53,660 nt of DNA from a virus, in IMG/VR virus record IMGVR_UViG_3300045988_124798, positions 1 to 53,660 of that record; one strand, written 5' to 3'. The position numbers and the translations under genes are program-made. Numbering within the stretch: the stretch's first letter is position 1; each line of letters opens with the position of its first letter. The notes beneath the pieces were generated by a model that had not been told where the DNA came from, searched no databases, and saw only the letters and a program-made list of their open reading frames with translations. Shown one piece after another: positions 3,467 to 47,661 of this stretch.

Positions 3467-3595
3467 AAAAATTCGCTTAATTTTTCTATTAAATTCGATA
3501 GATTTTATTTTTTTTAACGAAATGGCAGCAGGGGTGCATCGTATTATGTGGCGGTGGGCTGATGCACAATTATTAAGCAGAAAGGCGGTACAGAA

Positions 3596-3895
3596 ATGCA
3601 AGTCGAAATAGCATATCTCATAAGCATAGTATCTTTGGCATTTTCCGTCTTTTTCGGGTTGAAAAGCAGTAAGCATACAGACACAAAGGATATTGAGGAG
3701 CGTGTGAAGGATAACACAAGAATCAATATGAAACTGGATGCCATTGCCGGCACAACACAGGAAATAAAATCGGAAATATCCACAATGAGAGAAGAAATCA
3801 ATAAGCACAATGACAAGATTATTAAGTTGGAGCAGAGCCTTAAATCTGCGCACCATAGACTTGATACTCTTGAGGAACGAATGAATCATGAGTAG
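3596..3895 (+). CDS. Membrane-anchored coiled-coil protein (N-terminal TM; XhlA-like architecture, inverted topology)
   Basis: 99 aa. Hydrophobic IAYLISIVSLAFSVFFGL followed by heptad-rich charged helix. Preceded by the AT-rich gap. Confidence 0.45.
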   Translation: MQVEIAYLISIVSLAFSVFFGLKSSKHTDTKDIEERVKDNTRINMKLDAIAGTTQEIKSEISTMREEINKHNDKIIKLEQSLKSAHHRLDTLEERMNHE

Positions 3896-3906
3896 GTGGT
3901 TTTCAA

Positions 3907-4329
3907 ATGCTCGATATTAACAGACAAAAGATGTTCTATTCAAAACAAATCGGTCAAGTCCCTGTCTATGATACGGACGAGGATGGGAATTTGAAATACA
4001 TCACTGTGGACGGAAACAAAGTGCCGATAGAAACAGGAGAATACACAACTGGGTACGATGCACCTGTACCCTTCCGTTCTTCCATAAGCAATAAATTGAG
4101 CGAATCTCTTATTAAAGAGTTTGGTGTTGATAATTCAACGAATTTTGTTCAGATAGTCGATGACAAGGGAAAACTTCCTTTGTCTGTCGGGGATTTGGTG
4201 TGGAAGAAATCTGCGGTTCAGTATAAGGCGGCAATGGTCGATAAGACAAGCTGCGACTACATCGTCAAAGGCGTTGCGGATGAAGGGCTGACGGTTGATT
4301 TGTTTCTGCTACAAAAGAATGTAAAGTAG
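3907..4329 (+). CDS. Putative neck/head-closure protein
   Basis: 140-aa ORF in the connector block. Assigned by position only. Confidence 0.3.
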   Translation: MLDINRQKMFYSKQIGQVPVYDTDEDGNLKYITVDGNKVPIETGEYTTGYDAPVPFRSSISNKLSESLIKEFGVDNSTNFVQIVDDKGKLPLSVGDLVWKKSAVQYKAAMVDKTSCDYIVKGVADEGLTVDLFLLQKNVK

Positions 4330-15494: not shown

Positions 15495-16064
15495 ATGGCG
15501 AAAAAGATGAACGCCGAAAAATGGGAAAGATTAAAAGAAGAAGGTCTTTCCTCGTATTATGTTAGTAATTTTGGAAGGATATATAACGAAAAGAAAAACA
15601 AACCTGTCCCTATTCAGAAGAATAGGAGAACGGGTTATTTTTTTGTCTCTCTATGGAATTATGATAAAAAGAAGGGAGAAAAAAGATATGTTCACAGATT
15701 GGTTGCAACATATTTTATATCAAATCCAGATAATAAAAAATATGTAGACCACATTGATACCGATAAATCTAACAATGTCTGTCAGAATCTGAGGTGGGTT
15801 ACGGCAAAGGAAAATGTTAATAATGTTTTGACGATAAAGCACATGAAAGAAAACCATGCGAATGTTTTCGGGAAAAAAAATTCATTCTATGGCAAAAAGC
15901 ATACAGAAAAATCCAAAAAAGAAATGAGCGAAAAAAAGAAAGGGGAGATGAATCCCTGCTATGGGAGAAGCGGTTCTAAACATCCTATGTTTGGAAAGGA
16001 ATCCCCGACAAAAGGAAAGAAAAGATATTTCAATGAAGAAACAATGCGATACTATTACGCTTAA
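15495..16064 (+). CDS. HNH homing endonuclease (NUMOD4 / HNH_3 / NUMOD3 repeats)
   Basis: YVSNFGRIYN..., HRLVATYFI..., VDHIDTDKSNN...NLRWVT.KEN, then repeated G(K)KHxxxxK NUMOD3-like motifs. Confidence 0.8.
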   Translation: MAKKMNAEKWERLKEEGLSSYYVSNFGRIYNEKKNKPVPIQKNRRTGYFFVSLWNYDKKKGEKRYVHRLVATYFISNPDNKKYVDHIDTDKSNNVCQNLRWVTAKENVNNVLTIKHMKENHANVFGKKNSFYGKKHTEKSKKEMSEKKKGEMNPCYGRSGSKHPMFGKESPTKGKKRYFNEETMRYYYA

Positions 16065-16079
16065 CGGAGGTGATGGCAA

Positions 16080-16715
16080 ATGGCAAAAATGACTGGAAAA
16101 GAACTGGTAAAGTTTTGTAGAAGCAAGGTCGGCACTGCCTATGTCTGAGTTTACGGTATGAAAGGCTCTGTAATGACAGAAGCAAACTACAACTATCTGA
16201 AAAACAAATATGGCAATATGGTATGGAACAGTGACCGAAAGAAAATCGGCAAGGTTTGTGTAGACTGCTCTGGTCTGATTTCGTGGGCGTGCGGTGTGAA
16301 ACTCGGCAGTACCCAATGGAAAGAACGGGCAAAAAGCGTAAACCCTATTTCTACCATAGAAAAAGCACCCATCGGGGCGTTGGTCTGGATGAAGGGGCAT
16401 ATCGGTGTTTACACTGGTATGAAGAACGGCTACCCTTACTACATAGCAGCTGACGGCTCGGCTTACGGTGTGCGTGAAGTCCCTCTGCGGTGCAACAAAT
16501 TCACACATTGGTTGCTTGTAAATGATATTTTCGACTACGAAACGGAGGATGAAGAAGTGGTAGAGAAGTGCAAGGTTATTATTGACGGCAAAGAACACAT
16601 AGCAGAACGGATTTTGAAGGACGGGACAAACTATATTAAGATTCGGGATGTTGCGGATGCCATCGGGTATAACATCACAAGCAAGGGGAGTATTGCGGTG
16701 CTGACGAAAAAATAA
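16080..16715 (+). CDS. Endolysin: NlpC/P60 peptidase plus Cu-amine-oxidase-N-like wall-binding domain, interrupted by an in-frame TGA at 16146-16148
   Basis: ATG at 16080 after GGAGGT encodes MAKMTGKELVKFCRSKVGTAYV, then TGA, then in frame VYGMKGS...VDCSGL...GHIGVY. The C-terminus is KVIIDGKEHIAERILKDGTNYIKIRDVADAIGY. Confidence 0.8.
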
Positions 16716-16796: not shown

Positions 16797-16831
16797 GGGA
16801 GTATATCAATTTCGGTATACTCCCTTTTTTT
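16797..16831. terminator. Terminator hairpin between convergent late (+) and cargo (-) transcription
   Basis: gggagtata-(10-nt loop)-tatactccc followed by ttttttt. Confidence 0.75.
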
Positions 16832-17150
16832 ATGCCGTTTTGCGAATTTCCCCGACCATCATATCTACCATATCGAACACTTCATCCCCATAAGTAGCCA
16901 CAAAGTCACATAAAAATTCCTCTTGTTCCAATGGGATATGTATGTCATAGGACATACAGACTGCATGGCATAATTCGTGTATAAGCACCTTCCTCTTAAA
17001 GCCGCCTACAAGCCGATTTGAAAGGCAAATACAGTGGGTGGTATTATCGGTCACACCAACCGTAAAACTCCCGTCAGAGCGGCGCAGACAGTCAGAGGAT
17101 GGCATAACGGAAACAACGCTCCACTTTACATTGTTTATCTCAAACACCAT
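16830..17150 (-). CDS. Small HExxH metallopeptidase-like protein (second copy of this architecture)
   Basis: 106 aa with a VLIHELCHAVCMSYD motif. Last gene of the minus-strand unit. Confidence 0.5.
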   Translation of the reverse strand: MVFEINNVKWSVVSVMPSSDCLRRSDGSFTVGVTDNTTHCICLSNRLVGGFKRKVLIHELCHAVCMSYDIHIPLEQEEFLCDFVATYGDEVFDMVDMMVGEIRKTA

Positions 17151-17207
17151 TTTGTTACCACCCCCATTTAAAAAAGATAGGGGTGTTTTCCCCCTATCCG
17201 TTTTATA

Positions 17208-17870
17208 TCAGCCGATTTTCTGCAAAAGTGTTGTCATTTTAGCCTTCAAAAGAGTACGTTCTTCTGGTGTCATATCCGAAAGAATCTCTGTCACATCACC
17301 AGAAAGCTCCTTCATGTATGCTTCAAGGTCGCGCATCTTTTGCTCTTTATCAGACTGAGAATTTCCCTTGTGCATTTCCTTACTTTCTGTGTAGTGGCGT
17401 TTTGCCTTATCGTAGCCGCTCATCGTGGGTTCGGTATAATACATTCTACCGCCCATACGGTCTAAATCTCTGCCACGCTCCGCATCACTCTTGCTATCCC
17501 ATTCGTGATACATATCGGGTGTCTGGAAGTAATAAGGCGGTTCTGTATAGCCTCTGCGTGTTCCTCTGCCCTTTGGTGCAAATCGACCGTCAGCGTATCT
17601 ATAATGGTCGTAGAAACGCCTGTCTCCGTCCTCGTAGTATTCTGATTTCAACCGTCTAAGGATTTCCTTATCTTCTTCTTCGTCCTCTTTCTCTGCTTTA
17701 TGCATAGCTTTTGTAATGACCGCTTTGTATTCGGCATCGTTTAAGTCTTTAATCATATCGACAACCTGACCCATTTCGGCGGTACCAACACATTCCAGAC
17801 CTTTTTCCATTTCAGACCATGCCTTTTCGCAAAGACACTCAATCATTTTGTGCATTCTCTCAATGTGCAT
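17208..17870 (-). CDS. Hypothetical Y/R/D/E/H/K-rich protein (cargo cluster)
   Basis: 220-aa ORF. Low-complexity charged/aromatic middle (YYEDGDRRFYDHYRYADGRF...). No motif recognised. Confidence 0.5.
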   Translation of the reverse strand: MHIERMHKMIECLCEKAWSEMEKGLECVGTAEMGQVVDMIKDLNDAEYKAVITKAMHKAEKEDEEEDKEILRRLKSEYYEDGDRRFYDHYRYADGRFAPKGRGTRRGYTEPPYYFQTPDMYHEWDSKSDAERGRDLDRMGGRMYYTEPTMSGYDKAKRHYTESKEMHKGNSQSDKEQKMRDLEAYMKELSGDVTEILSDMTPEERTLLKAKMTTLLQKIG

Positions 17871-17873
17871 AAA

Positions 17874-18278
17874 TTATTCACCTCCGTCCGTTGTTGCAGG
17901 GGCACCTTCTCCGTTGATAGCAGATAATCTGTTGTCCGGAGAACAGCAGGGTTCCCCTATCATTCTGAATAAGCCAGAATTGTCCGTTGTCTCAACTATG
18001 GTTTTGTATCTGGTTCTTGTTCTCAAGCCAGATGCTACAACCTGTCTACAATTACGCTTCATAAGCGGATACTGCACAGTACCGCCGCCAATCGTAATAA
18101 AAACAGGAGCATTGATTGTAGTGGTATCGGGGATTTTTTGAGCCACCACAATACAAACTTTTCGGCAGTCTGCATAACTGCCAGCGGGTAAATCTATAAT
18201 CAGATTTCCACCTGTAAAATTCACTGACTGCGACATAATGAAATTATCGCAAAGTCGGCACACGTTTTTGCAAGCCAT
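17874..18278 (-). CDS. Hypothetical Cys-rich beta-type protein (cargo cluster)
   Basis: 134 aa with 8 Cys, including N-terminal CxxxCxxC and a CC pair near the C-terminus. Confidence 0.5.
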   Translation of the reverse strand: MACKNVCRLCDNFIMSQSVNFTGGNLIIDLPAGSYADCRKVCIVVAQKIPDTTTINAPVFITIGGGTVQYPLMKRNCRQVVASGLRTRTRYKTIVETTDNSGLFRMIGEPCCSPDNRLSAINGEGAPATTDGGE

Positions 18279-18331
18279 AAAATAACACCTCCTAAAAAAA
18301 TAAGGGTAGACTTCTGCCTACCCTCTTTGTA

Positions 18332-18550
18332 TCAACCACTGTGGGCGAAGTCTGATTTAATATCAGATAGCATTTTTAGTATTTCCTTCTGGTCTTTCAT
18401 TATCTTATCCAGATAATACCCATCCTGCCTATGCAATTCTTTCAGTAGTGTATCGTTCGATACTTGCTGACACGTTACAAACTGTAAAAACACAGACAGG
18501 ACGGTAAGCATATCCAAATAAGATAACCCTTTATTTTGGTTGTCTGTCAT
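18332..18550 (-). CDS. Hypothetical small protein with a hydrophobic segment (cargo cluster)
   Basis: The ATG at 18550 overlaps the upstream TAA (TAATG). About 72 aa. Confidence 0.45.
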   Translation of the reverse strand: MTDNQNKGLSYLDMLTVLSVFLQFVTCQQVSNDTLLKELHRQDGYYLDKIMKDQKEILKMLSDIKSDFAHSG

Positions 18551-19344
18551 TAGCAACCACAACCACAACCGCAACCGTTACCGTATCCAGAATAAGGATA
18601 AGGAGCAGGGACGCTATACGCAGGGACAGGCATAGGGTTGATTCTTCTAATCAATTCAGCTGTCTGTGCATCCTGAGTTGCTGTGATGTATGCGTTCTGT
18701 GCGGACTGAGACGCAGCAAGCTCCAGTTTCTGAACCTTGTCTCTCAAATCCGCATTTTCCTTAGCACACAGATAGTCAAGGATTGCTCTTGTTCCTGCGT
18801 TCTGACTGTCGATAATGTCTCTGGTGTTTGTGTTCATTGTGTTCTGCAATGCACAAGTGTCCTTAGCCATATCGTATCTTACCTGTGCGATTGCCTCTCT
18901 GTTCTGGCAGCAACAATCCGCAAGCTGTGCCTGCAATGCGTTATGACCCTGCATCATAGCCACGTTAGCTGTATTAAACCCCTGCTGTGTCTGGTATCCA
19001 AGATTGCAGATAGCGTTATCAACACTATGGAAACCATTCATCAGAGTTGTGTTCTGTGCATAGAAACCATCGCACATACCGTTGGAGATACCATCCAGTT
19101 TGCCAATGATAGACTGTGTATCAAAGCCTCTCTGAATATCCGCCTGTGTAGCTGCTGTTGCTACATAGCCGCCGCCATTACCGCCGAAACCGCCGAAACC
19201 GTTATTGCCCCATCCAAAAAGCAAAGCAAAAACTACGATTATCCACAGCCAGCCGCCATCGTTGAACGCACCGTCATTGCCATAACCGCCAGTTGCCGGC
19301 ATTACAGGCATAGTAAAAGGTGTATTGTTTGTAGAGTTGAACAT
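18550..19344 (-). CDS. Hypothetical single-TM G/N/Q-rich protein with C-terminal GCGCGCGC (cargo cluster)
   Basis: 264 aa. GGWLWIIVVFALLFGW TM flanked by G/N/F runs (YjcZ-like look). 11 Cys including CCC. Ends ...YSGYGNGCGCGCGC. Confidence 0.55.
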   Translation of the reverse strand: MFNSTNNTPFTMPVMPATGGYGNDGAFNDGGWLWIIVVFALLFGWGNNGFGGFGGNGGGYVATAATQADIQRGFDTQSIIGKLDGISNGMCDGFYAQNTTLMNGFHSVDNAICNLGYQTQQGFNTANVAMMQGHNALQAQLADCCCQNREAIAQVRYDMAKDTCALQNTMNTNTRDIIDSQNAGTRAILDYLCAKENADLRDKVQKLELAASQSAQNAYITATQDAQTAELIRRINPMPVPAYSVPAPYPYSGYGNGCGCGCGC

Positions 19345-19422
19345 ATTAGATTCCTCCTTTTGATTGATTATTTTTATTCATAAAGAGGCACCAAGGTTTT
19401 TGCGCGCAACCTCTAATATGTC

Positions 19423-19653
19423 TTACATTCCAAACTTATCTTTCATTTGTTGAATCATTTCGTCAGGGTTTACCCCTTTCTCTTTGCAGAGGTTTCTTGC
19501 CATCTGCTCTACGCCTTTGGCATCCCCCTTCTGCATCATTTCGATGGCATTTTTCGCCATAGGGTTTCCCATCACTTGACTATTGTTCATCATTCCTTGT
19601 AAAAACTGTTGCGGATTCTTTATGCCGCTAAATAACTGAAACAAGTTTTTCAT
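19423..19653 (-). CDS. Hypothetical small helical protein (cargo cluster)
   Basis: 76 aa. The ATG overlaps the upstream TGA (ATGA). Confidence 0.45.
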   Translation of the reverse strand: MKNLFQLFSGIKNPQQFLQGMMNNSQVMGNPMAKNAIEMMQKGDAKGVEQMARNLCKEKGVNPDEMIQQMKDKFGM

Positions 19654-20159
19654 TCTGCATCCGCCTTTCTCTTGGTCGATTGTGTACTGGATTTTGAAGC
19701 GGTTTTATTTAAAGAAAGTTCCAACTGCTCTAATCTTTCGGAAAGTTCATCAAACCTATCCATGAAAGCCGAAACTGTACCGTCCGACAAGTCAATTTTT
19801 AAATTCTCTTTGTTTTGGATTTCGCTTTGAGGAACAGTCTCATTTATCGGCTTGAAGATTACGGTTTTGATTGTGCCGTCAGCGTTCCATGACTTAGCCA
19901 ATATTGCACTCATATCCTGCATTGGAAAGAACGCCGCCGAGCCATCCATAGGTACGTCATTTGCTGTTATCATTTCCACAGACTGTACCACTCGACCATT
20001 TATGCCGCTCTGTAACTGCTGCTGAAACTGATTTGCGGTCTGCAATGGCTCTATCTGTGGTTGCTGCATCCTCGGTTGTTGGAAGTACGGATTATACCCA
20101 TACTGCTGATATGCTGGTTGGATATTATAGTTCATGCTCTGATAAGGATTTGGTTGCAT
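19650..20159 (-). CDS. Hypothetical protein with Q/N/Y/P-rich N-terminus (cargo cluster)
   Basis: ATG at 20159 lies 9 nt after AAGGAGGG. The first ~55 aa are Q/N/Y/P-rich, followed by a globular part and a coiled coil. Confidence 0.5.
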   Translation of the reverse strand: MQPNPYQSMNYNIQPAYQQYGYNPYFQQPRMQQPQIEPLQTANQFQQQLQSGINGRVVQSVEMITANDVPMDGSAAFFPMQDMSAILAKSWNADGTIKTVIFKPINETVPQSEIQNKENLKIDLSDGTVSAFMDRFDELSERLEQLELSLNKTASKSSTQSTKRKADAE

Positions 20160-20292
20160 AGTCAATTCCCTCCTTTTCCAATACCTCTTGCACTGCCCGA
20201 ACCATAACGGACTGATACGTCAGAGGTATCTTCATTACATCTTCCCTACTGAAAATTTTTTCTAATACTTCATCTGAAAACATTTCCATCAT
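20125..20292 (-). CDS. Hypothetical small protein, first ORF of the cargo cluster (start uncertain)
   Basis: Three candidate ATGs (20292, 20289, 20283) after AGAGAGG. Overlaps the next ORF by 35 nt. Confidence 0.3.
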   Translation of the reverse strand: MMEMFSDEVLEKIFSREDVMKIPLTYQSVMVRAVQEVLEKEGIDYATKSLSEHEL

Positions 20293-20302
20293 CCTCTCTA
20301 TA

Positions 20303-20331
20303 AATATATTTTCGCATAAAAAAAGAGCCAA
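20303..20331 (-). promoter_or_regulatory. Candidate promoter for the cargo cluster (TTGGCT-17-TATATT)
   Basis: Read on the minus strand. The spacer is exactly 17 nt. Confidence 0.35.
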
Positions 20332-20390: not shown

Positions 20391-20670
20391 CTACACCAAT
20401 CTTACACCACTACACCAATTTTACACCAATTTTCTGAAAGTTATTCATTGGTTTTGAAAAGTTATTCAATGTTTATAATTTTCGTATGAATTGCTTGAAA
20501 CCATTGAAAATAAAGTTATTCAAGAGTTTTTAAAGTTATAACAAGATATTTGATTGTGATTAAAAAATCATCTCTTTAATTACCTCAAAAAAGGAGTACA
20601 TCTCTAAAAATCCTTTATTTATCAATAAAACTTTACTCTTGTATTTTATTTTACACCATTTACTACACCA
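20391..20670. repeat. attP-type arm repeats: six TACACCA(AT) and four AAGTTAT(TCA) direct repeats next to int
   Basis: TACACCA at 20392, 20403, 20411, 20422, 20652 and 20664. AAGTTATTCA at 20438, 20459 and 20513, and AAGTTATA at 20533. All are in the same orientation. Confidence 0.55.
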
Positions 20671-21787
20671 ATTTCAAATTTTCCTCTATCATTTCCATTT
20701 CTTCCATCTTGGAATCTTCGGTAACATGAACATACAAATTCATCGTCATTTCGATTTTGCTATGTCCCAGAATTGCTTGAAGAGTTTTCGGACGCATACC
20801 GTTTTCAATGCACCTTGTAGCGAATGTGTGCCTCAATAAATGTATTGAAAAACGCCGTATTCCTGCCCTATCGCACGCCGCGTATATCCCCTTGTTGTAT
20901 GCGTATTTTGGAATTGGAAAGCCTTTTGAATTGACAAAGATGTAATCTGTATATTGAATTGGGACAATTTTGTTTTGGCTGTTCTTTTCTTTCTGCCGTT
21001 TCAATATTTCGATTGCTTCTTTTGTAAGCGGTATTTCTCTTTTTCCGCTCTCTGTTTTTGTATTTCCGAATACAAACCCCCGCCCATCTATCCATGCCGC
21101 ACTTCTTTCTACTCTCATTTTCCTGTTTTCAAAATCAATATCAGACCACTTTAAGGCGGTGAGTTCGCCAACTCTAAGACCTGTTTGCAAAACAAAAGAT
21201 AACCCATTGTAGTAAACGTACCGACTCGATTCTTGCAGAAATAGTTTCTGTTCCTCCAATGTAAGAGCCTGCTTTCCTGCCGTTCTTTCTCCTCCTGCTA
21301 CTTTTGTTCTTTCGACAGGGTTCTTTTGGATGAAATCATTTTCAACAGCACACTCGAAAACAGACCACATCAAAGCCCTGTACGTCTTAATAGTGCTGCT
21401 CTTATGATTTGCGGCTAAATCGTTTAATATTTTTTGACAATGGATGGGTTTTACGTCTTTTAATTCCATGTCTCCTATCGCTGAATAAGCTGAATTTTTC
21501 CATTGGTTTTCGTAGTTATTTTTTGTTGAAATTCTAATTCCATTCCCCTTTACTTCTTCGAGCCAATACTCAAACCACGCATTGACCGTTGGAGAATCAG
21601 AAAAGAAAACATCCCCATGCTCATCCTCAAATTGTGCATCTGCCATCCACGCTCGACACTCCTGCAACTTATGAAAGTATTTTTGTTTTCGCTTTCCAGA
21701 CTTCGTTGTAAATCTCCCTGTATACATTCCGTCTTTTCGTTGGCTGATACCAACGCCTAATTCTTTTCCCTTAAGGTCTTTCCCCAT
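20663..21787 (-). CDS. int: Tyrosine integrase
   Basis: The N-terminus MGKDLKGKELGVGISQRKDG is typical of Firmicutes phage/ICE integrases. HLLRHTFAT and LGHSKIEMTMNLYVHV are catalytic motifs. ATG at 21787 preferred over 21823. Confidence 0.9.
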   Translation of the reverse strand: MGKDLKGKELGVGISQRKDGMYTGRFTTKSGKRKQKYFHKLQECRAWMADAQFEDEHGDVFFSDSPTVNAWFEYWLEEVKGNGIRISTKNNYENQWKNSAYSAIGDMELKDVKPIHCQKILNDLAANHKSSTIKTYRALMWSVFECAVENDFIQKNPVERTKVAGGERTAGKQALTLEEQKLFLQESSRYVYYNGLSFVLQTGLRVGELTALKWSDIDFENRKMRVERSAAWIDGRGFVFGNTKTESGKREIPLTKEAIEILKRQKEKNSQNKIVPIQYTDYIFVNSKGFPIPKYAYNKGIYAACDRAGIRRFSIHLLRHTFATRCIENGMRPKTLQAILGHSKIEMTMNLYVHVTEDSKMEEMEMIEENLKLV

Positions 21788-21813
21788 TCTATTACACTCC
21801 TTTCGATTTGAGA

Positions 21814-21851
21814 AAAGCCCCATACAGTTTCATACTACCATACGGGGCTTT
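21814..21851 (-). terminator. Hairpin between the xis-like gene and int
   Basis: aaagcccc / ggggcttt 8-bp stem with a 22-nt loop, followed on the minus strand by tct. Weak U-tract. Confidence 0.3.
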
Positions 21852-21858
21852 ACGTTGT

Positions 21859-22260
21859 CTACAATTCGATACTTCCTTCAATGAATTTATCAAATTCCTT
21901 TCTTTTGATTAACTTTTTTGTTCCTACGGTCAGAACAAACGTGCATCTTGGGTTGTTAGCCAATTCCCTTATCCTTGAAGTCCCGATACTGCTATATGCG
22001 GACGCTTCATCAATCGTCATTGTTACTTTCTGCCAAACTGGCACTTCTGGCTTCGACATATCCTCAATCCTTTCCATTTTCTTATAAATCTTCCGCAAAA
22101 TACGATTTACCGTAGATGATGATATTTTCATCGTGTCCGCTATATAATCAATAGGGGAACCGTTGCTGGACAGTTGAAATACCATCATCTCATCCTCGGT
22201 AAAATTGGCATTCTCTATGATTTTTCGCAATTCTGGCTTTGTCAAATTACGCAAAGCCAC
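21859..22260 (-). CDS. Sigma-70 region-4-like HTH fused to excisionase-type (MerR-like) HTH; probable Xis / recombination directionality factor
   Basis: N-terminus: FTEDEMMVFQL...IADTMKISSSTVNRILRKIYKK. C-terminus: MTIDEASAYSSIGTSRIRELAN...LIKRKEFDKFIE. Directly upstream of int. Confidence 0.6.
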   Translation of the reverse strand: MALRNLTKPELRKIIENANFTEDEMMVFQLSSNGSPIDYIADTMKISSSTVNRILRKIYKKMERIEDMSKPEVPVWQKVTMTIDEASAYSSIGTSRIRELANNPRCTFVLTVGTKKLIKRKEFDKFIEGSIEL

Positions 22261-43386: not shown

Positions 43387-43477
43387 GTTCAAAACCTCGC
43401 TTTCGTTTCGTGTAGTCTGCCATCGTCAGAGCCGGGAGACTATCCCACGGCTGACGGTCATTTCTGACCGTTTCGGC

Positions 43478-43639
43478 TCAATCCTCAAAAATTATTTCTG
43501 TAAATTCCTTCGGTGTAACAGATTCAATTGCAACATTTTCGTTTTTCAAATCCGCAAATCTTTTGGCGTTGCTATATTTTTTAAAAAATTTAACGCCATT
43601 AAATCCATAGTTTAAAAATACGATGTGAACCTTTACCAT
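43478..43639 (-). CDS. Small protein (53 aa), first gene of the leftward envelope-island operon
   Basis: Strong RBS GAAGGAGGAA. MVKVHIVFLNYGFNGVKFFKKYSNAKRFADLKNENVAIESVTPKEFTEIIFED. Confidence 0.45.
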   Translation of the reverse strand: MVKVHIVFLNYGFNGVKFFKKYSNAKRFADLKNENVAIESVTPKEFTEIIFED

Positions 43640-46858: not shown

Positions 46859-46930
46859 GCACCAGTAGTTTAATGGCGAGAACGTCAGACTTCCAATCTA
46901 ACGGCGTGGGTTCGATTCCCATCTGGTGCT
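46859..46930 (+). tRNA. tRNA-Gly (anticodon UCC), probable
   Basis: Manual cloverleaf: acceptor gcaccag/ctggtgc, D gttt/gaac, anticodon arm tcaga-cttccaa-tctaa (one C.A mismatch), T gtggg-ttcgatt-cccat, discriminator U. Confidence 0.7.
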
Positions 46931-47109
46931 TTTCATCGGGTTTGGACATTTTCCCGATGGATAACACGACCTTTCACCCACTAGGGGAATCCTGTTAAGA
47001 GCCATCGCACGGCTCGGTGGGATTTTGGCTTGCATGCCGATGGAGCCGGCAGCAAGACCAAACACTAACTTCATATTTGGGGCGTTTTAACGGCATTGCG
47101 CCCCATTCC

Positions 47110-47183
47110 GGATTCTTAGCTCAGCTGGTCAGAGCATCCGGCTCATAACCGGACGGTCCTCGGTTCAAGTCCGAGAGAATCCA
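47110..47183 (+). tRNA. tRNA with CAU anticodon (elongator Met or Ile2)
   Basis: ggattct ta gctc agctggtca gagc a tccgg ctcataa ccgga cggtc ctcgg ttcaagt ccgag agaatcc a. All stems are perfect. Confidence 0.9.
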
Positions 47184-47410
47184 TTTGCGGTCTTTCGGTA
47201 TCGTGGGTTATCGCGCCCATTGATTTTGCTGACTGACCGCGCCCCATACAAATTTTTATCCCCTTCTTGTCAGTCCGTTTTTCTGGTTTCGTGACTGACG
47301 TTAAACTCAAAACTGAAAAATCATGATGGGGATTGGATAGAAACTTGATTTAGGTGAGGTCGATTCGGATTTCACTATTAGAGATGGTGTCTTTTAGGTC
47401 CCCATCCTCT

Positions 47411-47502
47411 GCCAACATACCGAAACGGCTATAACGGCGTGGTCTTGAAAACCATTGTGTCGGTTAGAATCCGACATGGGGGTTCAAATCCCTCTGTTGG
47501 CG
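47411..47502 (+). tRNA. tRNA-Ser (anticodon UGA), long variable arm
   Basis: Acceptor gccaaca/tgttggc, anticodon arm gtggt-cttgaaa-accat, variable stem gtcgg..ccgac, T-loop ttcaaat. Confidence 0.8.
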
Positions 47503-47661
47503 ATTGGGTTCACGATAAAAGCCCAGTGCGCAACCTTATGGGTTAAAATCGTTGTAAAAATGCGTGGTCGAAAGCAGTCTTTTAGGTCTGCGATAAAGCG
47601 GACCGGTCTCGAGTTATTAGCCTGTGAGTAGACATGGCATAATTCAAAATTGAATTATGGT

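Follow-up and report, generated by a model that had tools for sequence, protein, structure and literature searches.

A co-conserved gene module beside the attachment site of a temperate siphophage genome, apparently shared by many phages of gut Clostridia

RESULTS

Gene content of the locus

The DNA analysed here, called the window throughout, is the IMG/VR virus record IMGVR_UViG_3300045988_124798 at its full length of 53,660 nucleotides (nt), the circularly permuted genome of a temperate siphophage. The structural and lysis genes lie on its plus strand up to 16715, the terminase and portal genes are found at the right end, also on the plus strand, and a leftward block of genes spans from about 43000 down to 16830. 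This report concerns a cluster of genes within the leftward block, P7 to P1, together with the genes that accompany it (Table 1). The original prediction, made from the letters alone, had described seven co-oriented minus-strand open reading frames (ORFs) at 17208-20292, tightly coupled and of unusual composition, and on each of these counts it was correct. The coordinates of the ORFs gave an ATGA overlap between P6 and P5 and a TAATG overlap between P4 and P3, and in addition an overlap of 35 nt between P7 and P6. Measured against the remaining ORFs of the window, Gln, Asn, Tyr and Pro made up 65% of residues 1-52 of P6 (background 15.6%), and Arg, Tyr, Asp, Glu and His accounted for 51% of the middle part of P1 (background 23%). 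The linker of P4 was 60% Gly, and this protein had 11 Cys and ended in GCGCGCGC; P2 contained 8 Cys. What the prediction had overlooked was an eighth gene at 16830-17150, a hairpin between P3 and P2, a gene for a helix-turn-helix (HTH) protein and the existence of copies outside prophage edges.

Each ORF was compared codon by codon with 12-39 closely related public contigs. Differences from the relatives fell mainly on third codon positions and were mostly synonymous in all seven ORFs. The ratio of synonymous to non-synonymous differences was 369 to 2 for P7 (36 relatives), 323 to 165 for P6, 360 to 297 for P5, 1957 to 345 for P4, 431 to 104 for P3, 605 to 312 for P2 and 1041 to 229 for P1, and the M78-like ORF at 16830-17150 gave 712 to 135. 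P1-P7 and this neighbouring ORF are genuine genes under purifying selection.

Table 1. Coordinates of the module genes and of associated features in the window (aa, amino acids)
Feature	Position	Strand	Remarks
Peptidase-like gene with HExxH, eighth module gene	16830-17150	-	106 aa
Terminator-like hairpin, bidirectional	17175-17199	-	after P1; terminator scan
P1	17208-17870	-	
P2	17874-18278	-	134 aa
Terminator-like hairpin and T-run	18302-18325	-	between P3 and P2; the ribosome-binding site of P2 follows 5 nt downstream
P3	18332-18550	-	72 aa; 72-aa gene call also in public assemblies
P4	18550-19344	-	core gene, hallmark of the module
P5	19423-19653	-	76 aa; core gene
P6	19650-20159 (or 20165)	-	core gene
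P7	20125-20292	-	55 aa; mechanical ORF reaches 20340
Candidate sigma-70-type promoter, TTGGCT-17-TATATT	20303-20331	-	consensus scan, 9/12 matches
attP region	20391-20670	-	core ~20585-20600 (CTCCTTTTTTGAGG); arm-type repeats TGGTGTAR x6, WATAACTTT x4
Tyrosine integrase	20663-21823	-	Pfam Phage_integrase 4.8e-35, PHROG 1; between the HTH gene and the module
HTH/Xis fusion ORF	21859-22260	-	133 aa

The gene set and its order in other phages

The genes around homologues of P4 were surveyed by tblastn and blastp clustering in 20 diverse loci, and about 50 close relatives were surveyed as well (surveyed loci carry L-numbers and the copy in the window is denoted WIN). The order P6-P5-P4 was kept in nearly all of the 20 loci, down to identities of 25-35%; P6 adjoined P4 in 18 of them, always with P5 between the two. 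These three genes were followed by one for a predicted beta-rich protein of changing family. The variable slot was filled by P2 together with P3 in the window, in L005, in L007 and in the Clostridium perfringens phages, by an unrelated protein of about 140 aa, termed X, in most other loci, and by further types in L008, L009 and L012. We could detect no relationship between P2 and X by sequence. P3 (cluster c10) occurred only where a P2-type gene was present (WIN, L005, L096 and L097). The next gene was either P1 (cluster c3, 8 of the 20 loci) or, in other loci, one for an Arg/Asp/Tyr-rich protein with DUF7841.

Further genes accompanied this core. The HExxH gene was found with the module in WIN, L005, L012, L052 and L083, and its place was taken in L004, L008, L010, L011 and L056 by a gene for a small protein of 117-157 aa, in which Cys, His and Asp motifs were recognised by eye. 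A gene of 65-85 aa for an HTH of the GerE/sigma-70 region-4 type lay directly upstream of the module in L003, L004, L010, L012 and L056, as did a similar small HTH gene, likewise sigma region-4-like, in L009 and L011. The integrase gene (int) and attP separate the HTH/Xis fusion from P7 in the window, a layout shared by L083, and P7 (cluster c12: WIN, L052 and L083) was confined to lineages in which int and attP lie between the HTH gene and P6. The set that makes up the module therefore consists of an HTH gene, P6-P5-P4, an interchangeable beta-rich protein, an Arg/Tyr/Asp-rich protein and a small peptidase-like protein. The 20 diverse loci and the roughly 50 close relatives bore out the co-occurrence of these families elsewhere, a point raised in the original prediction. 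Clustering divided the P4 family into more than 8,000 groups at 90% identity and into 2,268 at 50% identity (E up to 1e-3), and there were 2531 homologues of P2 and 2464 of P6, none of them with a Pfam family or an informative name.

The module was carried by phages of Lachnospirales, C. perfringens, Butyrivibrio and Megasphaera, some temperate and others probably virulent. It followed the lysis genes in bajarodcaudo virus 5, in Butyrivibrio virus Ceridwen and in L009, L010, L011 and L105; L003 and L004 are loci with this post-lysis slot. Its position in L056 was between a MuF-like head gene and a scaffold gene, and in the C. perfringens phage vB_CpeS-17DYC, which has no annotated integrase or repressor, it was found inside the early region. 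Butyrivibrio virus Ceridwen has been observed only in the lytic cycle and is considered probably virulent by the authors of its description (PMC7372960). Its presence in Ceridwen, in the integrase-less C. perfringens phage and at these other positions shows that the module is confined neither to prophage edges nor to temperate phages. As for the proposal that the cluster is cargo at the prophage edge, in the slot typical of morons, the genes of this phage do occupy an accessory slot between lysis and attP, but cargo is doubtful as a general term given the integrase-less and lytic carriers and the other positions. Judged from these sequence comparisons, the cluster appears to be one copy of an old, horizontally mobile module of phages of gut Clostridia and their relatives.

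Some single loci deserve mention. In L009, a Megasphaera-binned prophage, positions 3489-3980 encode a protein of 163 aa that resembles a unimolecular spanin in its lipobox-like LLSC, its coiled coil and the transmembrane (TM) segment at its C-terminus; the gene sits between a holin-like gene and the HTH gene of the module, and the host gene dinB lies just downstream of the module. In L001 (MT838775, 4.9 kb) a mechanical ORF at 11-757 links the 3' part of a gene for a sugar ABC-transporter permease, in frame, with a protein of the P6 type. The arrangement suggests integration of this prophage in the end of the permease gene, which would once more put the module at the extreme edge. We also considered whether the records of 4-6 kb named 'Bacteriophage sp.' that contain P4 are miniature genomes; this was rejected, as they are prophage fragments that end in host or head genes.

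P4 is predicted to be a membrane-anchored protein with one very long helix

P4 was modelled with AlphaFold2 as a monomer, using an alignment of 94 sequences with identities of 35-99%. In the model an acidic N-terminal tail precedes a short helix (residues 33-43) that constitutes the hydrophobic TM anchor, and this is followed by an unstructured linker rich in Gly, Asn and aromatic residues, by one unbroken helix of 160 residues (76-235) and by an unstructured Pro/Tyr/Cys tail that ends in CxCxC. The confidence of the model, expressed as the predicted local distance difference test (pLDDT), was 80-96 over residues 140-240. A helix of 160 residues would be about 24 nm long. Averaged over the alignment, its hydrophobicity had a periodicity peak at 3.6-3.67 residues rather than 3.5, and therefore follows the 11-residue pattern of hendecad coiled coils. 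The three cysteines C144-C146 (CCC) in the middle of the helix and a terminal Cys were nearly invariant. The N-terminal tail contained on average 0.44 Lys or Arg and 2.8 Asp or Glu, and none of the 94 family members had two or more Lys or Arg in this tail. By the charge-difference rule an orientation with the N-terminus outside and the C-terminus inside is therefore favoured, which would place the rod in the cytoplasm.

P4 matched PHROG 16490, a family of unknown function, at 1e-64. A Foldseek search with the model gave no match in the PDB and only noise in BFVD, as expected since the model is a single long helix, and no significant match was obtained in the PDB profile search, where ATP synthase subunit b, apolipophorin III and influenza HA2 appeared below the threshold, with a resemblance confined to layout.

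The partner proteins, the peptidase-like protein and the HTH protein

Hydrophobic N-terminal segments were found in only two of the module proteins, P4 and P3. Neither a signal peptide nor a hydrophobic segment that could serve as one was detected in P1, P2, P5, P6 or P7, and display on the surface of vegetative cells is therefore unlikely. In alignments of P6 the Q/N/Y/P-rich N-terminus gave way to a conserved domain of roughly 50 aa, and this to a coiled-coil helix at the C-terminus, which matched only coiled-coil peptides in the PDB. P5 is a helical protein rich in Met, Gln and Asn that carries NP repeats. Its single PDB match at that level, to 'Gogy' (7bqq; E 8e-5), a small helical protein of de novo design, was treated as compositional. 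Judged by eye, P3 starts with a helix that is hydrophobic or amphipathic and has a coiled coil at its C-terminus, and P1 has N- and C-terminal segments that likewise look helical, around a disordered middle rich in Arg, Tyr, Asp and Gly (alignment). P7 is an acidic helical protein without a known family; a relationship to the HTH family was dropped, the match covering only 14 residues at E 0.03.

P2 has predicted beta strands and seven invariant cysteines (C3, C7, C10, C42, C77, C111 and C112), which include an N-terminal CxxxCxxC and a C-terminal CC. It was homologous to a protein of 119 aa from a C. perfringens phage (E 3e-6), and its AlphaFold2 model, built with 30 close homologues, reached a pLDDT of only 39. 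Sequence searches gave no support to two suspected resemblances, of P2 to Ena and of X to a jelly roll of the type seen in TNF, C1q or the C-terminal domain (CTD) of BclA. One member of the 90% cluster of P2 is labelled by one public source '7-cyano-7-deazaguanine synthase in queuosine biosynthesis' (QueC), a name that no profile supported and that is evidently spurious.

The protein encoded at 16830-17150 contains HELCH and matched the Pfam family Peptidase_M78 (PF06114) at E 8.5e-4, with 19.6 bits against a cut-off of 22, and PHROG 1233 at 3.8e-12; it may be a minimal protein of the IrrE/M78 kind, and one public record gives a member of its identical-protein cluster the name 'IrrE N-terminal-like domain'. 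The N-terminal half of the ORF at 21859-22260 (about 22066-22254) aligned with the HTH of L012 (tblastn, E 1.6e-8), which is encoded at L012:155-352 and itself matched Pfam GerE (PF00196) at 3.9e-9 (36.4 bits, cut-off 23.5). Precomputed Pfam matches of an identical 133-aa protein were to GerE (weak) and Tn916-Xis, and blastp clustering placed the fusion in one cluster, c6, with the HTH genes of L003, L012, L056 and L083. The ORF thus appears to encode an HTH of the GerE/sigma-70 region-4 type fused to an excisionase similar to Tn916 Xis, the HTH being a stand-alone protein elsewhere.

Searches for known families

The prediction that P1-P7 contain no recognisable enzymatic or standard phage motif agreed with scans of Pfam, PHROG, NCBIfam and PADLOC. 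Pfam, NCBIfam and PADLOC gave nothing meaningful for P1-P7, and the only families matched by these proteins, and by their homologues from five other loci, were PHROG families of unknown function. The single match of any module protein in PADLOC-DB 2.0 was that of P5, at E 0.027. With regard to homology at the level of structure, which had also been put forward for examination, PDB profile searches of P2, P4, P6, P5, P1 and X and the Foldseek search of P4 found no relative. The homologues in annotated phage records were all called 'hypothetical protein', which was also the only public name of all ten proteins apart from the QueC label of P2. The searchable literature, including that on DUF7841, on prophages with exosporium or spore coat, on sporulation in Anaerotignum and the Ceridwen paper, held no description of the module. 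It appears to be far from every known kind of system, and no part of it shows membership in a family.

The original prediction had also suggested that the cassette decorates or remodels the host spore or cell surface. We searched P1-P7 in Pfam and NCBIfam (E up to 1) for GerQ (PF09671), YjcZ (TIGR01732), Ena (DUF3992, PF13157), BclA_C and Cot families and found none, and the same families were absent from Pfam scans of the homologues and X proteins of five other loci. Regular expressions for sigmaE, sigmaK, sigmaF and sigmaG promoters, which followed the Bacillus-type consensus and from which clostridial variants could differ, matched at no position within the 408 nt that precede P7 or within the gap between P3 and P2.

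The attachment site and transcription of the module

Integrated copies, the att junction and arm-type repeats confirmed the predicted placement of the cluster between the lysis cassette and int/attP. In integrated copies from metagenome assemblies host genes sit immediately upstream of P7, in the order Peptidase_M16, DAP epimerase, HflX, an ABC/FtsX pair, PrsW, NUDIX and a gene of 97 aa. Identity between the window and one such copy (L099) begins at window position 20596, beside the hairpin and T-run terminator of the 97-aa host gene, and on this basis we located the attP core. Six of the eight TGGTGTAR sites of the window fall within 20391-20670, on both sides of the core near 20590, and so do four WATAACTTT repeats. 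The attP region was almost invariant across 11 relatives, and many IMG/VR provirus contigs stop 250-300 bp upstream of P7. Since a member of the P7 cluster bears the NCBI name Anaerotignum faecicola, this species is the likely host.

Comparison of the stretch 20560-21823 with L017-L054 showed integrases only 71-90% identical in relatives whose module proteins were 95-99% identical. The sequence beside the att core also differs among close relatives, for example L021, L027 and L048. These differences suggest that integration modules may have been exchanged, and different attachment sites used, within one phage lineage.

The candidate promoter described upstream of P7 does exist, but such sites occur here at the level of chance (14 found, 14.2 expected from shuffled sequence). 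Its -35 hexamer was invariant in relatives and its -10 hexamer was TATAGG in most of them; apart from the latter hexamer, the 330 bp from the att core to P7 were nearly invariant. The hairpin at 18302-18325 has ten pairs and a consensus energy of -16 kcal/mol and was invariant in 12 relatives, with no covariation; it may be an attenuator that sets the stoichiometry of P7-P3 relative to P2-P1. Neither this hairpin nor the one after P1 leaves space for a promoter, and P2-P1 and the peptidase-like gene are therefore probably expressed through partial read-through, which would give them a lower dose than P7-P3. The terminator scan predicted no strong terminator between int and P7, so that in the circular form an early leftward transcript could run on through attP and reach the module. 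The host terminator is about 290 nt upstream in the prophage.

Other features of the window

A type II hammerhead ribozyme (Rfam RF02276) was matched at 43411-43478 on the minus strand, with 55 bits against a gathering threshold of 37 and E 1e-8, at the point where the leftward early genes and the rightward genes diverge. Three tRNA genes, Gly-tcc, Met-cat and Ser-tga, lie at 46859-47503 on the plus strand. Within 15495-16175, an ORF at 15495-16064 resembles HNH/NUMOD3 homing endonucleases and belongs to a cassette of about 640 bp (15511-16148) that replaces 50 bp of the HNH-less relatives L100-L102 and L104. The start of the endolysin gene in the window has a 6-nt insertion and an in-frame TGA after about 22 codons, leaving an ORF of 185 aa with its start further downstream, compared with an endolysin of 210 aa in relatives. 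This could be a homing event that truncated the endolysin, or something intron-like.

DISCUSSION

A proposed membrane-tethered assembly

We propose, with a probability of roughly 0.4, that the module builds a membrane-tethered protein assembly in infected cells that may serve exclusion or organisation at the membrane. Starting from the observed architecture and co-conservation, we infer interactions, topology and function as follows. As an oligomer, P4 would make up a rod about 24 nm long, laid out like the b-subunit stalk of ATP synthase, with its acidic N-terminal tail outside and the rod reaching into the cytoplasm. The rod and its Pro/Tyr/Cys tail would be the docking place for the Cys-rich P2 and for the coiled-coil parts of P6, P3 and P1, possibly via shared metal-thiolate sites, and the result would be an assembly at the membrane that is rich in low-complexity sequence. 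P5 may act as a small helper in the anchoring of P4, and the peptidase-like protein and the HTH protein could provide processing or control. Since integrase-less and probably virulent phages also carry the module, it presumably works during infection. As the module adjoins attP, expression from its own upstream region in the lysogen is possible too, and after excision it might be reached by read-through from the early leftward operon across int and attP.

As to the purpose of such an assembly, our tentative preference, held at odds well short of even, is membrane-level control in phage-phage competition, either superinfection exclusion or a means to sense a phage as it comes in. Our reasons for this slight preference are the accessory slot, the exchangeable component and how variable P6 is, and specificity would come from the exchangeable beta protein and from P6. 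We rank an organiser of replication or assembly next, and after it abortive-infection defence, help in lysis and decoration of the spore.

Several considerations weigh against the proposed assembly. None of the proteins has a characterised relative, which makes every functional step an inference. With its seven or eight genes the module is larger than known exclusion systems, which comprise one or two. In L056 it is found among head genes and in L003 and L105 it is co-oriented with late genes, and its timing may therefore differ between phages. The predicted oligomer and topology of P4 are derived from a monomer model and a modest charge bias, and confidence was low for residues 76-140 of the helix (pLDDT 46-69). 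With P2 modelled at a pLDDT of 39, the docking and the metal sites are conjecture.

Alternative functions

The module might alternatively be a membrane-anchored organiser of phage replication or assembly, a factory or condensate at the membrane in which the P4 rod tethers phage nucleic acid or particles via the RGG-like P1 and the prion-like P6, much as p16.7 of phi29, a membrane protein, serves as an analogy. We regard this as unlikely, though as the nearest of the competing functions. It would suit the position in the early region beside recombination and replication genes in C. perfringens phages, the place of the module as the distal end of the early leftward operon once the genome of this phage is circular, the occurrence in virulent phages, and the combination of a TM anchor and coiled coil in P4 with low-complexity partners rich in Arg, Gly and Tyr or in Gln and Asn. 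However, most temperate relatives carry the module in the post-lysis accessory slot, sometimes co-oriented with late genes, it behaves like an accessory element, with changing positions in the genome and accessory genes that differ by lineage, and no DNA-binding domain was detected. The accessory slot at the prophage edge and the swappable component speak for abortive infection or another form of defence, in which the variable beta protein would sense a phage and P4, with its Gly-rich segment beside the TM helix, would oligomerise into a membrane lesion under a switch formed by the peptidase-like and HTH genes. We consider this improbable: PADLOC found nothing, domains of the nuclease, ATPase or NADase type are absent, eight mainly low-complexity proteins are unlike known defence systems, and probably virulent carriers would be unusual for abortive infection.

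The adjacency to the lysis genes brings in a third possibility, that of an accessory to lysis or release, with P4 acting like a spanin or fusion protein or disrupting an outer layer once holin and endolysin have acted. The module comes directly after the holin-endolysin cassette or, as here, abuts it in at least eight lineages; the N-terminal TM segment, coiled coil and conserved Cys of P4 resemble an i-spanin, and its Gly/aromatic linker and helix gave a sub-threshold match to influenza HA2 (E about 1-2). But the hosts are mostly monoderm, a lipoprotein partner is missing and no lipobox was seen in P4 or P3, the Megasphaera locus has a separate u-spanin-like gene upstream of the module (read from the translation), the module is convergent with the lysis genes in the window and lies 3.5 kb from them, among early genes, in C. 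perfringens phages, and the topology suggested for P4 puts the rod inside the cell. This role in lysis is accordingly a poor candidate. The decoration of the spore coat, exosporium or cell surface by a prophage cassette made in the mother cell ranks last and seems very improbable to us. The whole basis of this idea is composition, which resembles that of coat and exosporium proteins (Q-rich GerQ, Tyr/Arg-rich CotC and CotG, and Cys-rich proteins); coat proteins likewise lack signal peptides, many hosts are Clostridia, the cluster lies at the prophage edge and the associated regulator is a stand-alone HTH of the GerE type, although GerE is merely the Pfam name of the broad LuxR-type HTH family. 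The searches returned neither a spore family nor a sporulation promoter nor an export signal. The module is moreover not restricted to spore-forming hosts, being present in the Butyrivibrio phage Ceridwen, known only from its lytic cycle, and in a Megasphaera-binned prophage contig, as well as in an integrase-less C. perfringens phage. Butyrivibrio and Megasphaera are not known to sporulate.

Implications

The proposed membrane-tethered assembly has a bolder form, which we offer as speculation and think rather unlikely. The module might create a new intracellular structure, a forest of 24-nm coiled-coil rods, each anchored in the membrane and tied to others by Cys or metal, that nucleates a low-complexity phase at the inner face of the membrane. 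The components of such a phase would be the prion-like Q/N/Y-rich P6, the RGG-like P1 and the Met/Gln-rich P5. If this were true, phages of gut anaerobe Firmicutes would have in it a compartment or barrier with which they order their own cycle or exclude rivals. P4 alone has more than 2,200 clusters at 50% identity, and single variants of the module genes occur on public contigs that number from hundreds to over 1,000, most of them of human gut origin. All eight families nevertheless lack a name, a Pfam model and any solved relative. Temperate and virulent phages of Clostridia both retain these six to eight genes as a set, which moves between genome positions and almost certainly represents a function missing from current accounts of phage biology in gut anaerobes. 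Since the carrier phages of C. perfringens and Butyrivibrio have been isolated on cultured hosts, the module is directly testable.

Comparison with known systems

The known system closest in composition is that of spore coat and exosporium proteins (GerQ, CotC/CotG, CotY/ExsY, YjcZ, Ena and BclA), which share with the module the Q-, Tyr/Arg-, Cys- and Gly-rich sequences, partners without signal peptides and a small nearby regulator of apparent GerE type. In contrast to them, the module proteins have no membership in these families and no sporulation-type promoter, and they are also found in phages of non-sporulating hosts. In position, the module is like morons and lysogenic-conversion cassettes such as bor and lom and the b-region ea genes of lambda, lying between lysis genes and attP and convergent with the late genes. 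Like the lambda ea genes, which are read across attP, it has its own upstream region, and transcription from int could pass attP and reach it only when the genome is circular. Unlike morons, it consists of seven or eight co-conserved genes and not one or two, and it also occurs in integrase-less phages and at other positions.

Spanins of the Rz type and p16.7 of phi29 are similar to P4 in having an N-terminal TM segment followed by a coiled coil, conserved helix cysteines and, as neighbours, lysis or early genes. The module differs from them in its mostly monoderm hosts and in having neither an o-spanin nor a domain for DNA binding, in the far greater length of P4 and in the five to seven dedicated partners of this protein. 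In layout alone, P4 is most like the stalk subunit b of ATP synthase, with which it has the N-terminal anchor and the very long hendecad helix in common; the best PDB matches to this subunit had E values of 0.047-0.09, which is not significant. What sets P4 apart from subunit b is the Gly/Asn/aromatic linker, the CCC in the middle of the helix, the Pro/Tyr/CxCxC tail and its place in a phage module with unrelated partners.

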